From a virus (taxonomy: Duplodnaviria; Caudoviricetes), in IMG/VR virus record IMGVR_UViG_3300030330_001955, positions 1 to 64,000 of that record: a stretch of DNA of 64,000 nt. One strand, written 5' to 3'. Position 1 is the stretch's first letter; each line of letters starts with the position of its first letter. Made by a program: the position numbers and the translations under genes. Below are positions 25,282 through 30,087 of this stretch, one piece after another. A model generated the notes under the pieces. That model saw nothing but the letters and a program-made list of their open reading frames with translations. It was not told where the DNA came from and searched no databases.

Positions 25282-25751
25282 ACAATCTCCCATATTAAGT
25301 AGTTAATTAAATTGTCAATTTATCCTGTTTTTCAGTCTGTTAAATAATCTTTTTAACAAGTGGCGAACATTATCGCTTGTCAGGTGGTAGCTCTCGCTTT
25401 TAACCGAGACGCCTAGAGTTTGATTAGTTCCTCGTCATCAGGCTCGGGGTGTTTAATTCTTTTCCTTGAATATATGTATATATTACATGAAAAGTCGCCT
25501 AAATTAAACCTTTTTAACCCTTTATTTTTAATTATTTTTATGAGTGGAAATATGAAAATAGTTCTTGTATTTGATTCAATAGTATGGTAAGGGCGGTTAA
25601 TAGACCTAACACACGCTCACGCTCAGGACCCCTCCGCACGTACAACTTTTGAAAATTTTGCGAACAATCAATTAACGCCGTACAGCGCATCATGATGATG
25701 CTCTTAAAAATTTTTCTTGACAAGGAAGTTAAAATGGAGTATAATTAACCT

Positions 25752-26213
25752 ATGAAAAATGAAATTGCAGTAAAAATGAGTCCAGAAGGATTAGAAGTGG
25801 CGAACACTTATTTAGAACTTGGTAGTGTAGGAGAGGTTTGTACTAAACTTGCTCTCGATGAGAATACTGTTAGCGAATATCTTAATAAACGCGAAGTCAA
25901 ACAATACATCGACCAAGTCTATCTAGATACCGGGTACAGAAACCGTTTTAAAATTGCTAGCGCACTCGATAACATCATAGAAGAGAAGTTAGCGGAAGTT
26001 GAAGAAACTGGAATGTACACTAATAAAGACGTTGCTGACCTCTTACAAATGGCTCATAAAATGAGAATGGACGAAATAAAAGCTATGGCAGAATTAGAAA
26101 AAGCTAAAACTGCCCCTATAAAACAACAAGCTAACATTCAAATAAATGAGATGCCTTTTGGTCAAGGTAATTACGGCAAACTCATGGAGAAGTTAATTGG
26201 CGAAAAGAATTGA
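25752..26213 (+). CDS. terS: Terminase small subunit (T5-type)
   Basis: MSPEGLEV..TYL, EVKQYID.VY.DTGYRNR, KL.E.EETG, AHKMRMDE closely parallels T5 TerS; promoter TTGACA(25717)-17-TATAAT(25740). Confidence 0.85.
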   Translation: MKNEIAVKMSPEGLEVANTYLELGSVGEVCTKLALDENTVSEYLNKREVKQYIDQVYLDTGYRNRFKIASALDNIIEEKLAEVEETGMYTNKDVADLLQMAHKMRMDEIKAMAELEKAKTAPIKQQANIQINEMPFGQGNYGKLMEKLIGEKN

Positions 26214-26772
26214 AGAACTTAAAAGTTCTTTAGATTGGAATAGAATACCAGTCCAAAAAATTCGAAAAATCGCGAAACTAAACAAAGACCGTGATGGGGC
26301 TTCTCGTGCAGAAGCAGTATTCAAAGACTACTTTATAAATAGACGAGGAATGACGCAAGAGCAATGGCAAGAGCAGTATGATGCAATTGCTCCTACTTGG
26401 GAATGGTATAAAACACACGCTATACACCCGAACGACCCCATGATGGTGGGATACTTAAAAGAAGTGTGGGAAAAATTTAATTGCGGGTTGGCTCAGTACA
26501 TACAGTTTTATTTACAGCCGCCTCTAATGGACTTACCCTATCATTATGATGGCAGGTCAACTAATATAAATTTTGTATACCCACACGAAGAAGTTTCTCC
26601 TCTAACAATAGAGGGAAAAGATTTTTATTATGATAACTTTGTCTTTGACGGAGGTTATCAGAAACATATGGTAAGAGGCGCTGCATCACCTAGATTTATG
26701 ATGCAGATTTGTTTTTGGGAAGTACCTTATGAAAAAGTGGTACAAGAACTAAGGAGACAGAATCATGTGTAA
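26197..26772 (+). CDS. Cupin/2OG-Fe(II) oxygenase-like protein
   Basis: LPYHYDG (HxD), INF, KHMV, RF..QI.F. Confidence 0.55.
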   Translation: MAKRIEELKSSLDWNRIPVQKIRKIAKLNKDRDGASRAEAVFKDYFINRRGMTQEQWQEQYDAIAPTWEWYKTHAIHPNDPMMVGYLKEVWEKFNCGLAQYIQFYLQPPLMDLPYHYDGRSTNINFVYPHEEVSPLTIEGKDFYYDNFVFDGGYQKHMVRGAASPRFMMQICFWEVPYEKVVQELRRQNHV

Positions 26773-26809
26773 ATGTTGTAAATGTTGCAACTGTACTTGT
26801 TGCGAATAG
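26765..26809 (+). CDS. 14-aa Cys-rich micropeptide MCKCCKCCNCTCCE (not in track)
   Basis: AGGAG at 26752-26756, ATG 26765, TAG 26807-26809 overlapping the iscU RBS. Confidence 0.65.
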   Translation: MCKCCKCCNCTCCE

Positions 26810-26817
26810 GAGGATAA

Positions 26818-27249
26818 ATGGCATACTCAAAAGAAGTAGTAGAAAGATTCGAAGCGGTAACAAATAATCCCGCGGCACACGGTGTTGGTAGGTTTGACCC
26901 TAACGACCCAATGGTTGCAACTGGACTCACAGGAGCTCCAGCTTGCGGTGATGTAATGAAACTCGATTTGAAACTAAATGAAGAGAATCAGATACTAGAT
27001 GTCAAATTTAAAACTTATGGTTGCGGAAGTGCAATCGCGAGTAGTTCACTATTTGTAGACATGCTAAAAGGTCTTACACTAGAAGAGGCTAAACTAATTA
27101 AAGATAAAGAAATAGCAGAGGTGCTGCAGTTACCTCCTATAAAACTTCATTGCTCAGTACTTGCAGAAGATTGTATAAAAAAGGCAATAGAAGATTGGGA
27201 AAAGAAAGTAGCACATAGAAACCACAACTATGATAGAGCTCACGGATAA
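26818..27249 (+). CDS. iscU: Fe-S scaffold IscU
   Basis: GAPACGDVMKL, FKTYGCGSAIASSS, LPPIKLHCSVLAED. Confidence 0.95.
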   Translation: MAYSKEVVERFEAVTNNPAAHGVGRFDPNDPMVATGLTGAPACGDVMKLDLKLNEENQILDVKFKTYGCGSAIASSSLFVDMLKGLTLEEAKLIKDKEIAEVLQLPPIKLHCSVLAEDCIKKAIEDWEKKVAHRNHNYDRAHG

Positions 27250-27547
27250 AGCATATGAAAAGCTTCTGGAGAAGACAAGAGGCGATGAGGGTATCACCAT
27301 TGCTTTACTTCCCGGCGGCTGTGCTGGTTTTGAGTATAAGTTGGATTATATTGGTAATAGAATCCTTGATAGCTCGTGGAAGATACTAGATTACGTTAAC
27401 TTTAAAATAGGAGTTGACAAGATGTCAATTCCATACTTAGATGGGGCTACCTTAGATTGGCAGCAACAAGGAATAAACGAAGAGTTTGTTTTTAGAAACC
27501 CTAACGAACAAAACAGGTGTGGCTGTGGTGTTAGCGCGTATTTCTAA
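27230..27547 (+). CDS. iscA: A-type Fe-S carrier (IscA/HesB)
   Basis: IELTDKA, GGCAGFEY, F.NPN....CGCG.S. Confidence 0.92.
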   Translation: MIELTDKAYEKLLEKTRGDEGITIALLPGGCAGFEYKLDYIGNRILDSSWKILDYVNFKIGVDKMSIPYLDGATLDWQQQGINEEFVFRNPNEQNRCGCGVSAYF

Positions 27548-27840
27548 TGGAAGTTTTTCAGTTAATAGCAGAAGTTGGAGCGCCTATAGCAGGAGCCCTG
27601 GTGATGCTTTATTTTCTGTTCATAATTATGAAACAAAAAATCGAAGACACCGTAGGTAAAGTAAAACTTTTACAAACTTTTGCAGAGTCGTTAACAACAA
27701 GAGTCAAGACTATAAACAATGACTTAATAAAATTAGACACAGCTGTTAGTTCAGCACTAGGTCTAAAACCAGATTTAGATAGAATTGCCCGAGCAGAAAA
27801 TTTTGTTGAAGATGGCACTATCGATGTTAGGAGAGATTAG
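27547..27840 (+). CDS. Single-TM coiled-coil protein
   Basis: IAEVGAPIAGALV TM, RVKTINNDLIKLD; paralog-like to the next gene. Confidence 0.7.
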   Translation: MEVFQLIAEVGAPIAGALVMLYFLFIIMKQKIEDTVGKVKLLQTFAESLTTRVKTINNDLIKLDTAVSSALGLKPDLDRIARAENFVEDGTIDVRRD

Positions 27841-28127
27841 TGAGTGATGTAGCAACGCTAATCGCCGAGTTTGGATTTCCTATTGTAATGATGGTATCGC
27901 TTGGATACTTCGTCTACTATATATGGAACTCTATACAGAAGGTTATAAATCCTGCAATCAGTAGCCAGCATATGGCGCTGATAAAACTCATTGACCAAGT
28001 ACGGATGCTTGATAATGATGTTATTCGTCTACAAGAGAAGATAGACACGGTGCTACAGATTAAAGAAAATGAAATACTTAATAGGAGCGTTAATACTAAT
28101 AGTATCGACGACGACAGTAGCCGATGA
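27840..28127 (+). CDS. Single-TM coiled-coil protein
   Basis: IAEFGFPIV TM, LIDQVRMLDNDVIRL. Confidence 0.7.
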   Translation: MSDVATLIAEFGFPIVMMVSLGYFVYYIWNSIQKVINPAISSQHMALIKLIDQVRMLDNDVIRLQEKIDTVLQIKENEILNRSVNTNSIDDDSSR

Positions 28128-28539
28128 AATAGTCCACGGCTTTAAAAATCCTTCCTTTAGCGGAATAGGAACTTCCGCACACTACCTCACTATTGAAAAT
28201 CAAGAGAAGAGTAGACGCGACCAAATTCAGGACGATATCGAATCTGCACTAAAAGCTGCTCAACGTGAAGCAGAAAACACAACTCTTGCTAAATTTATAA
28301 GAAACCTCGAAAGTAGAATCTTTGCGCAGTTATCAAAACAATTAGTAGATAATATGTTTGGTAATGATGAAGCGTCATTATTTGGTTCTTTTACACTAGA
28401 AGGTAATACAATAACTTATCAGAGAACAGAAAGCTGTACTGAGGACGGTGTATGTACAGAGATTATTAGACTTACAATAGTCGCAGAGGACGGAAGTACA
28501 ACTACAATAGACATTCCAATAGGCACTGGAGGTTTTTAA
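28069..28539 (+). CDS. csgF: Curli assembly protein CsgF-like
   Basis: Signal peptide then EIVHGFKNPSFSG...L...Q; F...LESRIFAQLSKQL; directly upstream of csgG. Confidence 0.8.
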   Translation: MKYLIGALILIVSTTTVADEIVHGFKNPSFSGIGTSAHYLTIENQEKSRRDQIQDDIESALKAAQREAENTTLAKFIRNLESRIFAQLSKQLVDNMFGNDEASLFGSFTLEGNTITYQRTESCTEDGVCTEIIRLTIVAEDGSTTTIDIPIGTGGF

Positions 28540-29378
28540 TGAAACATCTGGTTGTTCTATCCTTATTATTTTTGACAGGGTGTGCATCTATACCTATGTG
28601 GAACGACAGTTGTACTGTAGAATTTGCCAAACAATTTGGAGAGTGTAGAGAAGCTCCTGAGATTATCGAACTTCCTACATATGAACAACTCTTAAACTTC
28701 CCACCAGCAGAAGTAATGCCGGTTGTGGCTGTTTATAATTTTCAAGACCTTACAGGTCAAAGAAAGCGTAGAGATAATTTAGCAGACTTTAGTACTGCAG
28801 TTACTCAGGGCGCTACAGAATTACTCATTGACGCACTCAAAACTGCCGCAAAAGGTAAGTGGTTTCGTGTTGTCGAAAGACATGGGATTGACCACTTAGT
28901 ACGAGAAAGACAAATTGTTAGAAGTACTAGAGAAGAGAACGATAATGATAAAGGAATTCAACCTCTGCTTTTTGCGGGTATTATATTTGAAGGTGGTATC
29001 ATAGGATATGACTCAAATATTGAAACTGGCGGTAGAGGTGCAAGAACATTAGGGATTGGACATCAAACTCAATATAGAAGAGATGTTGTTACTGTAAGTT
29101 TACGTGGAATTAGCACTCTTACAGGAGAGATATTATTAAATGTCCAAACTCAAAAGACTATACTATCAGTTGGTGGAGGTTTCGATGTATTTAAGTTTGT
29201 CGATATGGACACTCAACTAGTAGAAATAGAAGACGGTGTTGCAAAAAACGAAAGCGTAACTGTTGCAACCCGTGCGGCTATAGAGGCTGCAGTGGTCGCC
29301 GTTATTAAGCAAGGCGACGAAAGGGGCTACTGGAAAATCCAGGAGCAATTGGGAGATGAAAGTGAAGAAACTAAATAG
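28539..29378 (+). CDS. csgG: Curli secretion channel CsgG (lipoprotein)
   Basis: LTGC lipobox, VAVYNFQDLTGQRK, FSTAVTQGA, WFRVVER.G...L..ERQIVR, EGGIIGYDSN. Confidence 0.93.
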   Translation: MKHLVVLSLLFLTGCASIPMWNDSCTVEFAKQFGECREAPEIIELPTYEQLLNFPPAEVMPVVAVYNFQDLTGQRKRRDNLADFSTAVTQGATELLIDALKTAAKGKWFRVVERHGIDHLVRERQIVRSTREENDNDKGIQPLLFAGIIFEGGIIGYDSNIETGGRGARTLGIGHQTQYRRDVVTVSLRGISTLTGEILLNVQTQKTILSVGGGFDVFKFVDMDTQLVEIEDGVAKNESVTVATRAAIEAAVVAVIKQGDERGYWKIQEQLGDESEETK

Positions 29379-30087
29379 CATACTATTCGTTTTATTACTT
29401 TCTGCTGGCTATGTGCTAGCCGACGCCTCCGATAACGAGATTTTTCTCGAACAGGAAGGTGACACACTTGAATTGACAATTGACCAAGTAGGTTATGGAA
29501 ACAAGTTCTGTGGAACAATATCATCTGGCGCTTGTGCTAGTGATATGGTAATCACAGGTAGTAACATAACTTTTAATTTGGATCAATTAGGTAATAGTAA
29601 CCAACTATTCGGGCCTATCATATTAGACTCTTCTAATATAGATATGTCTTTTACTGGAGATAGCAATGTCTTTGATTGGAATATTGGTGCTACAGGTTCT
29701 GCCGATAACTTAGATTTAGATTTAACCGTTACTGGCGATAGCAACTCATGGAATCTTGATATTGGAGGTAACGCTTCATCAGAAAGTTTAAACTATGATT
29801 TAACTATTACTACAGGAAGTTCAAATGTTTTTACACAAATATTTGACTCTGACAACAACAAGTGGGAATTAGAACTAGCAGGTGGTAGTAATGACTTCAA
29901 TACTACTCAGAAAGACGCAGATCAAATCTTAATTATTGACTATGATGGTGATGATGGAGATATAGATATTGTCCAGCAATCTGGAACCTGTCCAAACGGT
30001 GTTACAACCTGTTCAGGTGTGATAGATATGGAGATTGATTCTGACGATGCAGTTATTACAATTAACCAGAAAGATACTAGCGACTAG
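29356..30087 (+). CDS. Secreted curlin-like beta-solenoid protein
   Basis: Signal peptide, repeated x-Q-x-G-x-x-N and GDSN units, very acidic, Cys pairs. Confidence 0.7.
   Translation: MKVKKLNSILFVLLLSAGYVLADASDNEIFLEQEGDTLELTIDQVGYGNKFCGTISSGACASDMVITGSNITFNLDQLGNSNQLFGPIILDSSNIDMSFTGDSNVFDWNIGATGSADNLDLDLTVTGDSNSWNLDIGGNASSESLNYDLTITTGSSNVFTQIFDSDNNKWELELAGGSNDFNTTQKDADQILIIDYDGDDGDIDIVQQSGTCPNGVTTCSGVIDMEIDSDDAVITINQKDTSD

Follow-up and report, generated by a model that had tools for sequence, protein, structure and literature searches.

An eight-cysteine micropeptide encoded before iscU in a T5-like phage: a recurrent family of marine phages and SAR86 bacteria with a putative metal-thiolate role

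Introduction

Amino-acid attenuator leaders such as trpL, pheL and hisL are short open reading frames (ORFs) which are rich in one amino acid and stand before biosynthesis-related genes. Metallothioneins are a polyphyletic class of small Cys-rich proteins defined by their properties and include the Neurospora Cu-metallothionein (about 25 amino acids), the cyanobacterial SmtA and the mycobacterial MymT. CC and CxC pairs characterise metallothioneins rather than Fe-S sites, and classical [4Fe-4S] ferredoxins have a motif spaced as CxxCxxCxxxCP. In mycobacteria, the leaderless polycysteine small ORFs (sORFs) Ms5788A, Rv0815A and others have been described as Cys-responsive attenuators; they carry uninterrupted stretches of Cys at the 3' end, form a stable duplex with the downstream Shine-Dalgarno (SD) sequence and precede cysteine-metabolism operons (bioRxiv 10.1101/834739). 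Here we describe a micro-ORF of 14 codons which lies directly upstream of the Fe-S scaffold gene iscU in a phage genome. The DNA analysed, hereafter the window, is a stretch of 64,000 nucleotides (nt), positions 1 to 64,000 of the IMG/VR virus record IMGVR_UViG_3300030330_001955, and the source record is a 102.9-kb genome rated complete. The peptide, MCKCCKCCNCTCCE, has 14 amino acids, eight of which are Cys.

The micro-ORF resembles several described systems in part. Like the attenuator leaders it is short, rich in one residue and placed just before a biosynthesis-related gene, but it is not at the 5' end of its transcript and has no terminator or antiterminator, for which the 8 nt between its stop and the iscU start would leave no room. 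With the mycobacterial polycysteine sORFs it shares its lack of annotation, its very small size and its richness in Cys codons, and its copies in bacteria of the SAR86 order are leaderless and often first in their cluster; unlike in those sORFs, the Cys spacing is fixed and interrupted, no duplex is predicted, the downstream genes vary, and phage copies have an SD and an operon-internal position. Its likeness to metallothioneins consists in a very high Cys content arranged in CC and CxC arrays, in small or charged hydrophilic residues between the Cys with no aromatic or hydrophobic ones, in a cytosolic nature without a signal peptide and, in SAR86, in metal-handling neighbours. It differs from them in being half the size of the smallest known to us, in packing Cys about twice as densely (8 of 12 core residues), in showing, when surrogates of 22 and 27 amino acids are compared, no detectable sequence relation to the Pfam metallothionein families and in occurring in phages and in a free-living bacterium alike, and metal binding is here putative. 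The Fe-S auxiliary genes of marine phages (iscU, iscA, nfuA) occur in the same cargo regions, are likewise sporadic across lineages and also have a SAR86 counterpart; the micro-ORF differs from them in that its 45 nt lie below every gene-calling threshold and that the direction between donor and recipient is not established.

Judging from sequence comparison, we hold that the micro-ORF is a real mini-gene and not a product of chance. Its best reading appears to be a translated accessory micropeptide of the metal-thiolate, or metallothionein-like, kind, for which we put the probability at about one half.

Results

Recurrence of the micro-ORF

Re-reading the sequence between 26400 and 27600 bore out every detail that an earlier note on this DNA had given of the micro-ORF, namely its sequence, the AGGAG-N8-ATG spacing and the use of both Cys codons. 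The ATG stands at 26765 and is followed by TGT AAA TGT TGT AAA TGT TGC AAC TGT ACT TGT TGC GAA, with six TGT and two TGC, and by the stop TAG at 26807-26809. Could such a frame be open by chance? The first 18 nt after the ATG form a tandem 9-nt repeat (TGTAAATGT twice), and the fallback of the earlier note was that the ORF is nothing but this meaningless microrepeat. The repeat itself and the absence of the micro-ORF from the closest relatives of the phage speak for that explanation. Against it, when the 102.9-kb genome was simulated 100 times with a second-order Markov model, no simulation produced a stop-free window of 13 codons with at least eight Cys. Elsewhere in the real genome, every frame of such Cys density runs antisense to coding sequence rich in Thr/Ala. 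We take the micro-ORF to be more than chance because, decisively, the same core recurs elsewhere. In a different phage type (L090) an identical peptide stands between unrelated flanks and is encoded with one synonymous Cys codon (TGT for TGC) and with TAA for TAG, and the loci of the family are strongly enriched for SD or -10 signals. The fallback was thus mistaken, since conservation of the peptide extends to many other phages and to SAR86; in our judgement the comparative data already rule out a chance microrepeat, to which we assign a negligible probability.

A degenerate pattern for MCKCCKCC matched 24 viral contigs and one for CCKCCxCTC matched 69. In 51 matched marine viral contigs the peptide is encoded by a stand-alone ORF of 13-18 codons; the ORF of L149 has 22 codons if it is read from an upstream GTG. 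The family takes the form M(x0-5)-C-x-CC-K-CC-x-C-T-CC, with no tail or with G, S or E, and includes a clade of 16 residues which ends in CTCPECN. Before a metagenome scan, 86 loci with 47 distinct ORF sequences and 37 distinct peptides were at hand. The scan yielded about 30 more contigs with copies of both the phage type and the SAR86 type, after which 72 loci were distinct in the ORF plus the 20 nt upstream of it. The loose pattern CCxCCxCxCC returned from the viral contigs nearly nothing other than noise, made up of off-frame GCT/CTG repeats and Cys repeats of giant viruses, and L255 was its sole family-like match. The matches of MCKCCKCCKKIQMLN in L084, L091 and L104 are unrelated, with no SD or a position inside longer frames, and the same applies to two long frames, from Peribacillus and Chitinophagaceae, which have no SD or are part of longer frames. 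Exact-motif and topic searches of the literature found no paper describing this micro-ORF family, and the eight-Cys micropeptides have apparently not been described before.

Conservation of the peptide and signals for its translation

Variation of the core was analysed over 45 distinct core sequences. The arrangement C-x-CC-x-CC-x-C-x-CC is kept in 44 of them, the remaining one having Y in place of the first Cys. Three of the 45 have P for the last Cys, a change offset by an extra Cys two residues later. Both TGT and TGC occur in every Cys column (in column 9, for instance, 17 TGT against 28 TGC). Between the Cys, the four remaining columns contain K, N, T, R, Q, S, D, E or A only, never a hydrophobic or aromatic residue, Gly, Pro or His, and the new variants from the metagenome obey the same rule of hydrophilic spacers. 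No insertion or deletion was seen in the core, and the N- and C-terminal extensions vary.

Two of the variant groups are worth describing separately. The form with Tyr for the first Cys (MYDCC…; TGT to TAT), the sole Cys loss seen, belongs to L287 / L372 (SAR86 genome G261). The 16-residue phage clade (L082:9181-9231 and 14 similar loci) keeps eight Cys, and its ending, …CTCPECN, gives the spacing CxxCxxCxxxCP; its stop overlaps, as TAATG, the start of an ORF of 148 amino acids which has no SD of its own.

An SD is present at 32 of the 72 distinct loci, compared with 12.9% of background ATGs; at 36 of the 72 the ATG is preceded, at a distance of exactly 6 nt, by a -10 box of the form TAnnnT, compared with a background of 2.8%. 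Four loci have neither signal and none has both. The phage copies are the SD-led ones; the SAR86 copies are leaderless and have their own promoter. Because the family has thus arrived at two mutually exclusive solutions for expression, an SD in phages and a leaderless promoter in SAR86, we argue strongly that translation of the micro-ORF frame is what is selected.

The conserved sequence and the expression signals show that the peptide matters, not what it is for, and they would equally suit a role that does not involve metal, for example as a thiol redox buffer, as a small inhibitor of a host protein or as a substrate for modification. Such a role seems improbable to us: the peptide has no leader region, no gene for a maturase, protease or transporter is recurrently adjacent, and the composition is that of metal-thiolate peptides. 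No maturase, such as a radical SAM enzyme, was found among the neighbours in the window or among 20 neighbouring proteins of other phage loci. The absence of a leader and the presence of Cys from residue 2 onwards also set the micropeptide apart from the precursors of ribosomally synthesized and post-translationally modified peptides, for example SCIFF / ranthipeptides.

Copies in SAR86

SAR86 bacteria are among the most abundant in the surface ocean and must import all of their reduced sulfur. Applied to species-representative genomes, the first pattern matched two SAR86 genomes. The pattern CCKCCxCxCC was present in 15 of 266 genomes of the SAR86 order, against none with a reversed control pattern, and a synteny search through the neighbouring PepSY_TM protein, which is independent of the Cys pattern, added nine genomes, in which S replaces K, for example MCDCCSCCNCDCCS. 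Of 401 Gammaproteobacteria sampled across the class, only two matched, both in the SAR86 order, and one of these added a D variant. Overall, at least 25 of the 266 SAR86 genomes carry the micro-ORF, and MCDCCKCCECSCCSK is one form of the SAR86 peptide.

The recurrent gene order in SAR86 is an HXXEE protein, the micro-ORF, a MerC-family transporter (PF03203, 1e-22 to 5e-25), the PepSY_TM protein and a His/Met-rich protein of 360 amino acids, which is outer-membrane-like and has a beta-barrel-like C-terminus. One clade has a gene for a glyoxalase-II-like protein of the metallo-beta-lactamase (MBL) fold between the micro-ORF and MerC. The micro-ORF of genome G001 lies 64 nt before MerC and beside a divergent gene set, which encodes an HMA-domain protein (His-rich at the N-terminus), a protein with weak likeness to MerT and a metal repressor of the CsoR/RcnR type; a cupredoxin is encoded nearby.

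Some of the SAR86 clusters have features of their own. At L380:105-3116 (SAR86 genome G092) and in L475, L498 and L464, a leaderless micro-ORF is co-directional with genes for an MBL-fold/HAGH_C protein, MerC, PepSY_TM and a His/Met-rich protein of 361 amino acids, and this conserved cluster looks like an uncharacterised system of soft-metal trafficking. At L380:128-168 and in L278, L384, L387, L388, L393 and L396, the final two Cys codons, together with the stop, pair with the sequence just downstream. This hairpin of the MBL-linked clade has 6-10 bp, shows one G-U-compatible change in L384 and L396 and is absent from the other clades.

Phage contexts and the adjacency of Fe-S genes

The phage copies, whose carriers belong to several marine lineages, the T5-like one of the window phage among them, occur in about 17 distinguishable gene contexts. 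At 15 loci the micro-ORF lies between two ORFs of unassigned function in a virion-like region and its stop overlaps the next start (TAATG). Elsewhere it is found between DUF6267 and a cytidylyltransferase/DUF6321 gene or adjoins DUF5824 proteins, and in further contexts no function is assigned to the neighbours; PHROG annotation of the neighbour genes gave only families of unknown function. Besides the window, two arrangements adjoin Fe-S genes. In L156/L157 (and L419, L456) an IscA-like gene (PF01521, 2e-11) starts 3 nt downstream of the micro-ORF, and in L120/L137/L146 an NfuA-type gene (PF01521 + PF01106) ends 9 nt upstream of it. In a fourth phage (L101) iscU/iscA are 9.4 kb from the micro-ORF. 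Adjacency to Fe-S genes in three of about 17 contexts exceeds what we would expect for rare genes.

Does the peptide then serve the Fe-S machinery itself? As a minimal iron or Fe-S peptide, it would hold Fe(II) or a [2Fe-2S]/[4Fe-4S] cluster in its two interleaved CxxC ladders, or carry persulfide sulfur, and would serve IscU, IscA or NfuA as a very small carrier or store. The three independent phage arrangements adjoining IscU/IscA, IscA-like or NfuA-type genes point in this direction, as do core positions 1, 4, 7 and 11, which read CxxCxxCxxxC and, in the 16-residue clade, CxxCxxCxxxCP (the window copy has C where the ferredoxin-type motif has P). The sole PDB match of surrogates of 22 and 27 amino acids was also to a ferredoxin-type motif and was not significant (E = 8.3). 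However, eight Cys within 12 residues allow nearly any Cys motif to be read into the peptide, and its CC/CxC pairs are those of metallothioneins rather than of Fe-S sites. Moreover, about 14 of the 17 contexts have no nearby Fe-S gene, the SAR86 neighbours indicate soft-metal transport rather than Fe-S assembly, and the co-location may be that of a cargo hot spot, with iscU and the micro-ORF sharing a variable site in the terS lineage. We therefore regard a dedicated Fe-S peptide as unlikely. A bolder proposal along these lines is that a "proto-ferredoxin / micro-metallothionein" of 13-16 residues, the smallest gene-encoded metal-cofactor peptide known, with an Fe-S or metal-thiolate cluster bound by its eight Cys, was captured by marine phages from SAR86-like hosts and is deployed with IscU/IscA/NfuA for the supply of Fe-S clusters during infection; this, too, we would put forward only as a long shot.

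Genetic setting in the window

The features around the micro-ORF are listed in Table 1. The terS, 191-residue ORF, micro-ORF, iscU and iscA genes probably form one transcript, because a perfect promoter precedes terS and no + strand terminator comes before iscU; no terminator-like site was found on the + strand between 25400 and 27300. The ATG of the micro-ORF overlaps the stop of the 191-residue ORF as well, a point which the earlier note had missed. That ORF had no match in Pfam, PHROG or phage-database searches, and its homologues in terS relatives are just 25-34% identical.

Table 1. Features of the window around the micro-ORF
Feature	Position	Strand	Remarks
Sigma-70-type promoter TTGACA-17-TATAAT, before terS	25717..25745	+	12/12 consensus positions
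terS, T5-type small terminase subunit	25752..26213	+	blastn to T5-like phage terS; 402 relatives among viral contigs
191-amino-acid ORF, function not assigned	26197..26772	+	stop TAA 26770-26772 inside the micro-ORF start region (ATGTGTAA)
Shine-Dalgarno AGGAG of the micro-ORF	26752..26756	+	8 nt before ATG
Micro-ORF (14 codons + TAG), encodes MCKCCKCCNCTCCE	26765..26809	+	C-x-CC-x-CC-x-C-x-CC family member
Shine-Dalgarno AGGAGG of iscU	26808..26813	+	shares 2 nt with micro-ORF TAG; 4 nt before iscU ATG
iscU (NifU_N scaffold, Fe-S cluster assembly)	26818..27249	+	PF01592, 1.3e-37; 558 phage relatives
iscA/HesB-like A-type Fe-S carrier	27230..27547	+	PF01521, 1.3e-13
Small membrane protein, first of tandem pair	27547-27840		phrog_18771
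Small membrane protein, second of tandem pair	27840-28127		phrog_18771; weak holin-like match, 3.7e-4
csgF, curli secretion	28069-28539		PF10614
csgG, curli secretion	28539-29378		PF03783
243-amino-acid secreted-looking protein	29356-30087		directly after csgG; repeated GDSN/GxxN-type segments

Searches of the region against GenBank phages with blastn and tblastn gave distant terS matches only and no close relative. The GenBank phage IscU matches are 38-56% identical (30% in one partial match). The phage and SAR86 IscU proteins are 63-70% identical, a figure which does not decide the host.

Further downstream, the two small membrane proteins are tandem paralogues and are kept across the terS relatives. 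They are followed by genes for curli export parts, which are unusual in a phage. The protein of 243 amino acids encoded next might be a curlin-like subunit; a search of Pfam returned no match for it at E <= 0.01.

The position before iscU

The earlier note had presented the micro-ORF as coupled to iscU, and comparison with related phages does not bear this out as a system. At the 80 best-matching loci for phage IscU (76-85% identical), the 100 nt upstream of iscU contain no Cys-rich ORF. A search through TerS gave 80 marine T5-like relatives (TerS 62-94% identical). In 36 of these (within L291-L327, L340 and L355) iscU lies downstream of terS, mostly in the order terS...iscU-iscA-two small membrane proteins-csgF-csgG. 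The micro-ORF is absent from all 36, including those with 90-94% TerS identity and the five closest (L291-L294, L297); in these five the upstream ORF extends to the iscU SD and start. Absence from phages of the same gene order was the first of the observations that the earlier note had expected to count against its proposal. Compared with the close relatives, the window has about 50 extra nt, whose exact borders cannot be drawn since the upstream gene is too diverged, and we infer that a cassette of roughly 50 nt was inserted before iscU. In more distant members of the same terS lineage (L083, L088, L094, L114, L359, L364, L519) the micro-ORF is found in the region downstream of terS and there is no iscU. 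This region is evidently a variable hot spot for cargo. On these comparisons, the location of the micro-ORF before iscU is best regarded as a peculiarity of one phage, a local accident rather than a system.

The main rival explanation starts from this location. The micro-ORF would be a cysteine-sensing translational coupler, analogous to the mycobacterial "Cys ribulon": scarcity of Cys-tRNA would stall ribosomes on the eight Cys codons, where they would cover the iscU SD and the start 8 nt downstream and block initiation, and with ample cysteine termination at the TAG would hand ribosomes to iscU. The overlap of the stop with the iscU SD (TAG at 26807-26809, AGGAGG at 26808-26813), which the earlier note had reported correctly, permits this. 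Also, in most phage copies the distance to the next start is -1 to 13 nt, the SAR86 copies have no leader and are often the first gene of a cluster, like the published polycysteine sORFs, SAR86 depends on reduced sulfur, IscU consumes sulfur derived from cysteine, and Fe-S carriers are adjacent in three phage contexts. On the other hand, the ORF is missing at the 36 syntenic relatives and the 80 other phage iscU loci, and the genes downstream of it are mostly unrelated to cysteine (the virion-region ORF, the cytidylyltransferase, DUF5824, MerC). In L120/L137/L146 the Fe-S gene is upstream, not downstream, of the micro-ORF. The RNA gives little sign of a sensor either: the window sequence at 26740-26850 folds no better than shuffles (z = +0.69), the leaders of SAR86 fold no better than shuffles at most loci (z mostly -1.4 to +1), the search of Rfam was without match, and the + strand has no terminator in the interval given above. 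Finally, a counter of codons needs no fixed Cys spacing, no exclusively hydrophilic spacers and no compensating Cys in the P variant.

Two features of the mycobacterial sORFs are also not shared throughout. The leaderless first cistron is found in SAR86 copies only, the copy in the window being SD-led and located about 1 kb past the promoter, behind two genes. A conserved downstream operon for cysteine or sulfur metabolism is not found, and in SAR86 the downstream gene is MerC, PepSY_TM or the MBL-fold gene. Within the window the overlap allows a coupler; the arrangement is not conserved and is not accompanied by RNA structure or a terminator, and we consider the coupler a doubtful, though conceivable, explanation.

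Discussion

As far as comparison of sequences can tell, a metallothionein-like micropeptide fits the evidence from the whole family better than a cysteine-sensing coupler. We favour it because the Cys spacing is fixed, the spacers are exclusively hydrophilic, the expression signals are independent and the SAR86 neighbours are metal-transport genes, and because the peptide is conserved whatever the downstream gene. The micropeptide would be translated from the terS transcript by means of its own SD and would wrap thiophilic metal ions, most likely Cu(I), Zn, Cd or Hg and possibly Fe, which it would buffer or pass on. In SAR86 it may act as the cytosolic acceptor of the membrane system formed by MerC, PepSY_TM and the His/Met-rich protein. 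In phages it would be an auxiliary gene of host type, which keeps soft metals off the metalloproteins needed during infection or feeds metals to them, and these may include the phage's own IscU and IscA. Both Cu and Zn have been found to bind IscU and IscA and to inhibit Fe-S biogenesis (PMC6495748), so a soft-metal buffer placed beside phage Fe-S carriers would be sensible. The overlap between the stop and the iscU SD would then represent ordinary translational coupling, a by-product of compact insertion, and no conserved sensor.

Several observations weigh against a metallothionein-like peptide. Surrogates of 22 and 27 amino acids, used in Pfam because the 14-residue peptide is too short, gave no hit at E <= 10, metallothionein families included. 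The invariance of the Cys is partly a matter of ascertainment, since the majority of the search patterns asked for Cys over most of the core; the bias spares only about 11 loci, which came from synteny, and all of these retain eight Cys. The SAR86 copies, leaderless and often first in a co-directional cluster, have the architecture of the mycobacterial Cys-sensing sORFs. SAR86 lacks sulfate reduction and assimilation (PMC3358033), so that a cysteine sensor would make sense in these bacteria. Lastly, the adjacency of Fe-S genes in phages may only reflect shared cargo hot spots. As two phage lineages besides that of the window have the micro-ORF next to IscA-like or NfuA-type genes, a looser functional link to Fe-S biogenesis may exist.

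What would the family mean for the biology of these phages and their hosts? If the micropeptide binds metal, no other ribosomally made metal-thiolate peptide known to us would be nearly as short or as Cys-dense. It would also represent a new and wholly unannotated class of auxiliary genes in the trace-metal biology of phages and hosts (Cu, Zn, Cd, Hg, Fe) and would show how much biology lies below the thresholds of gene calling. If instead the coupler were true, ribosome-based sensing of cysteine would extend from mycobacteria to marine Gammaproteobacteria and their phages.

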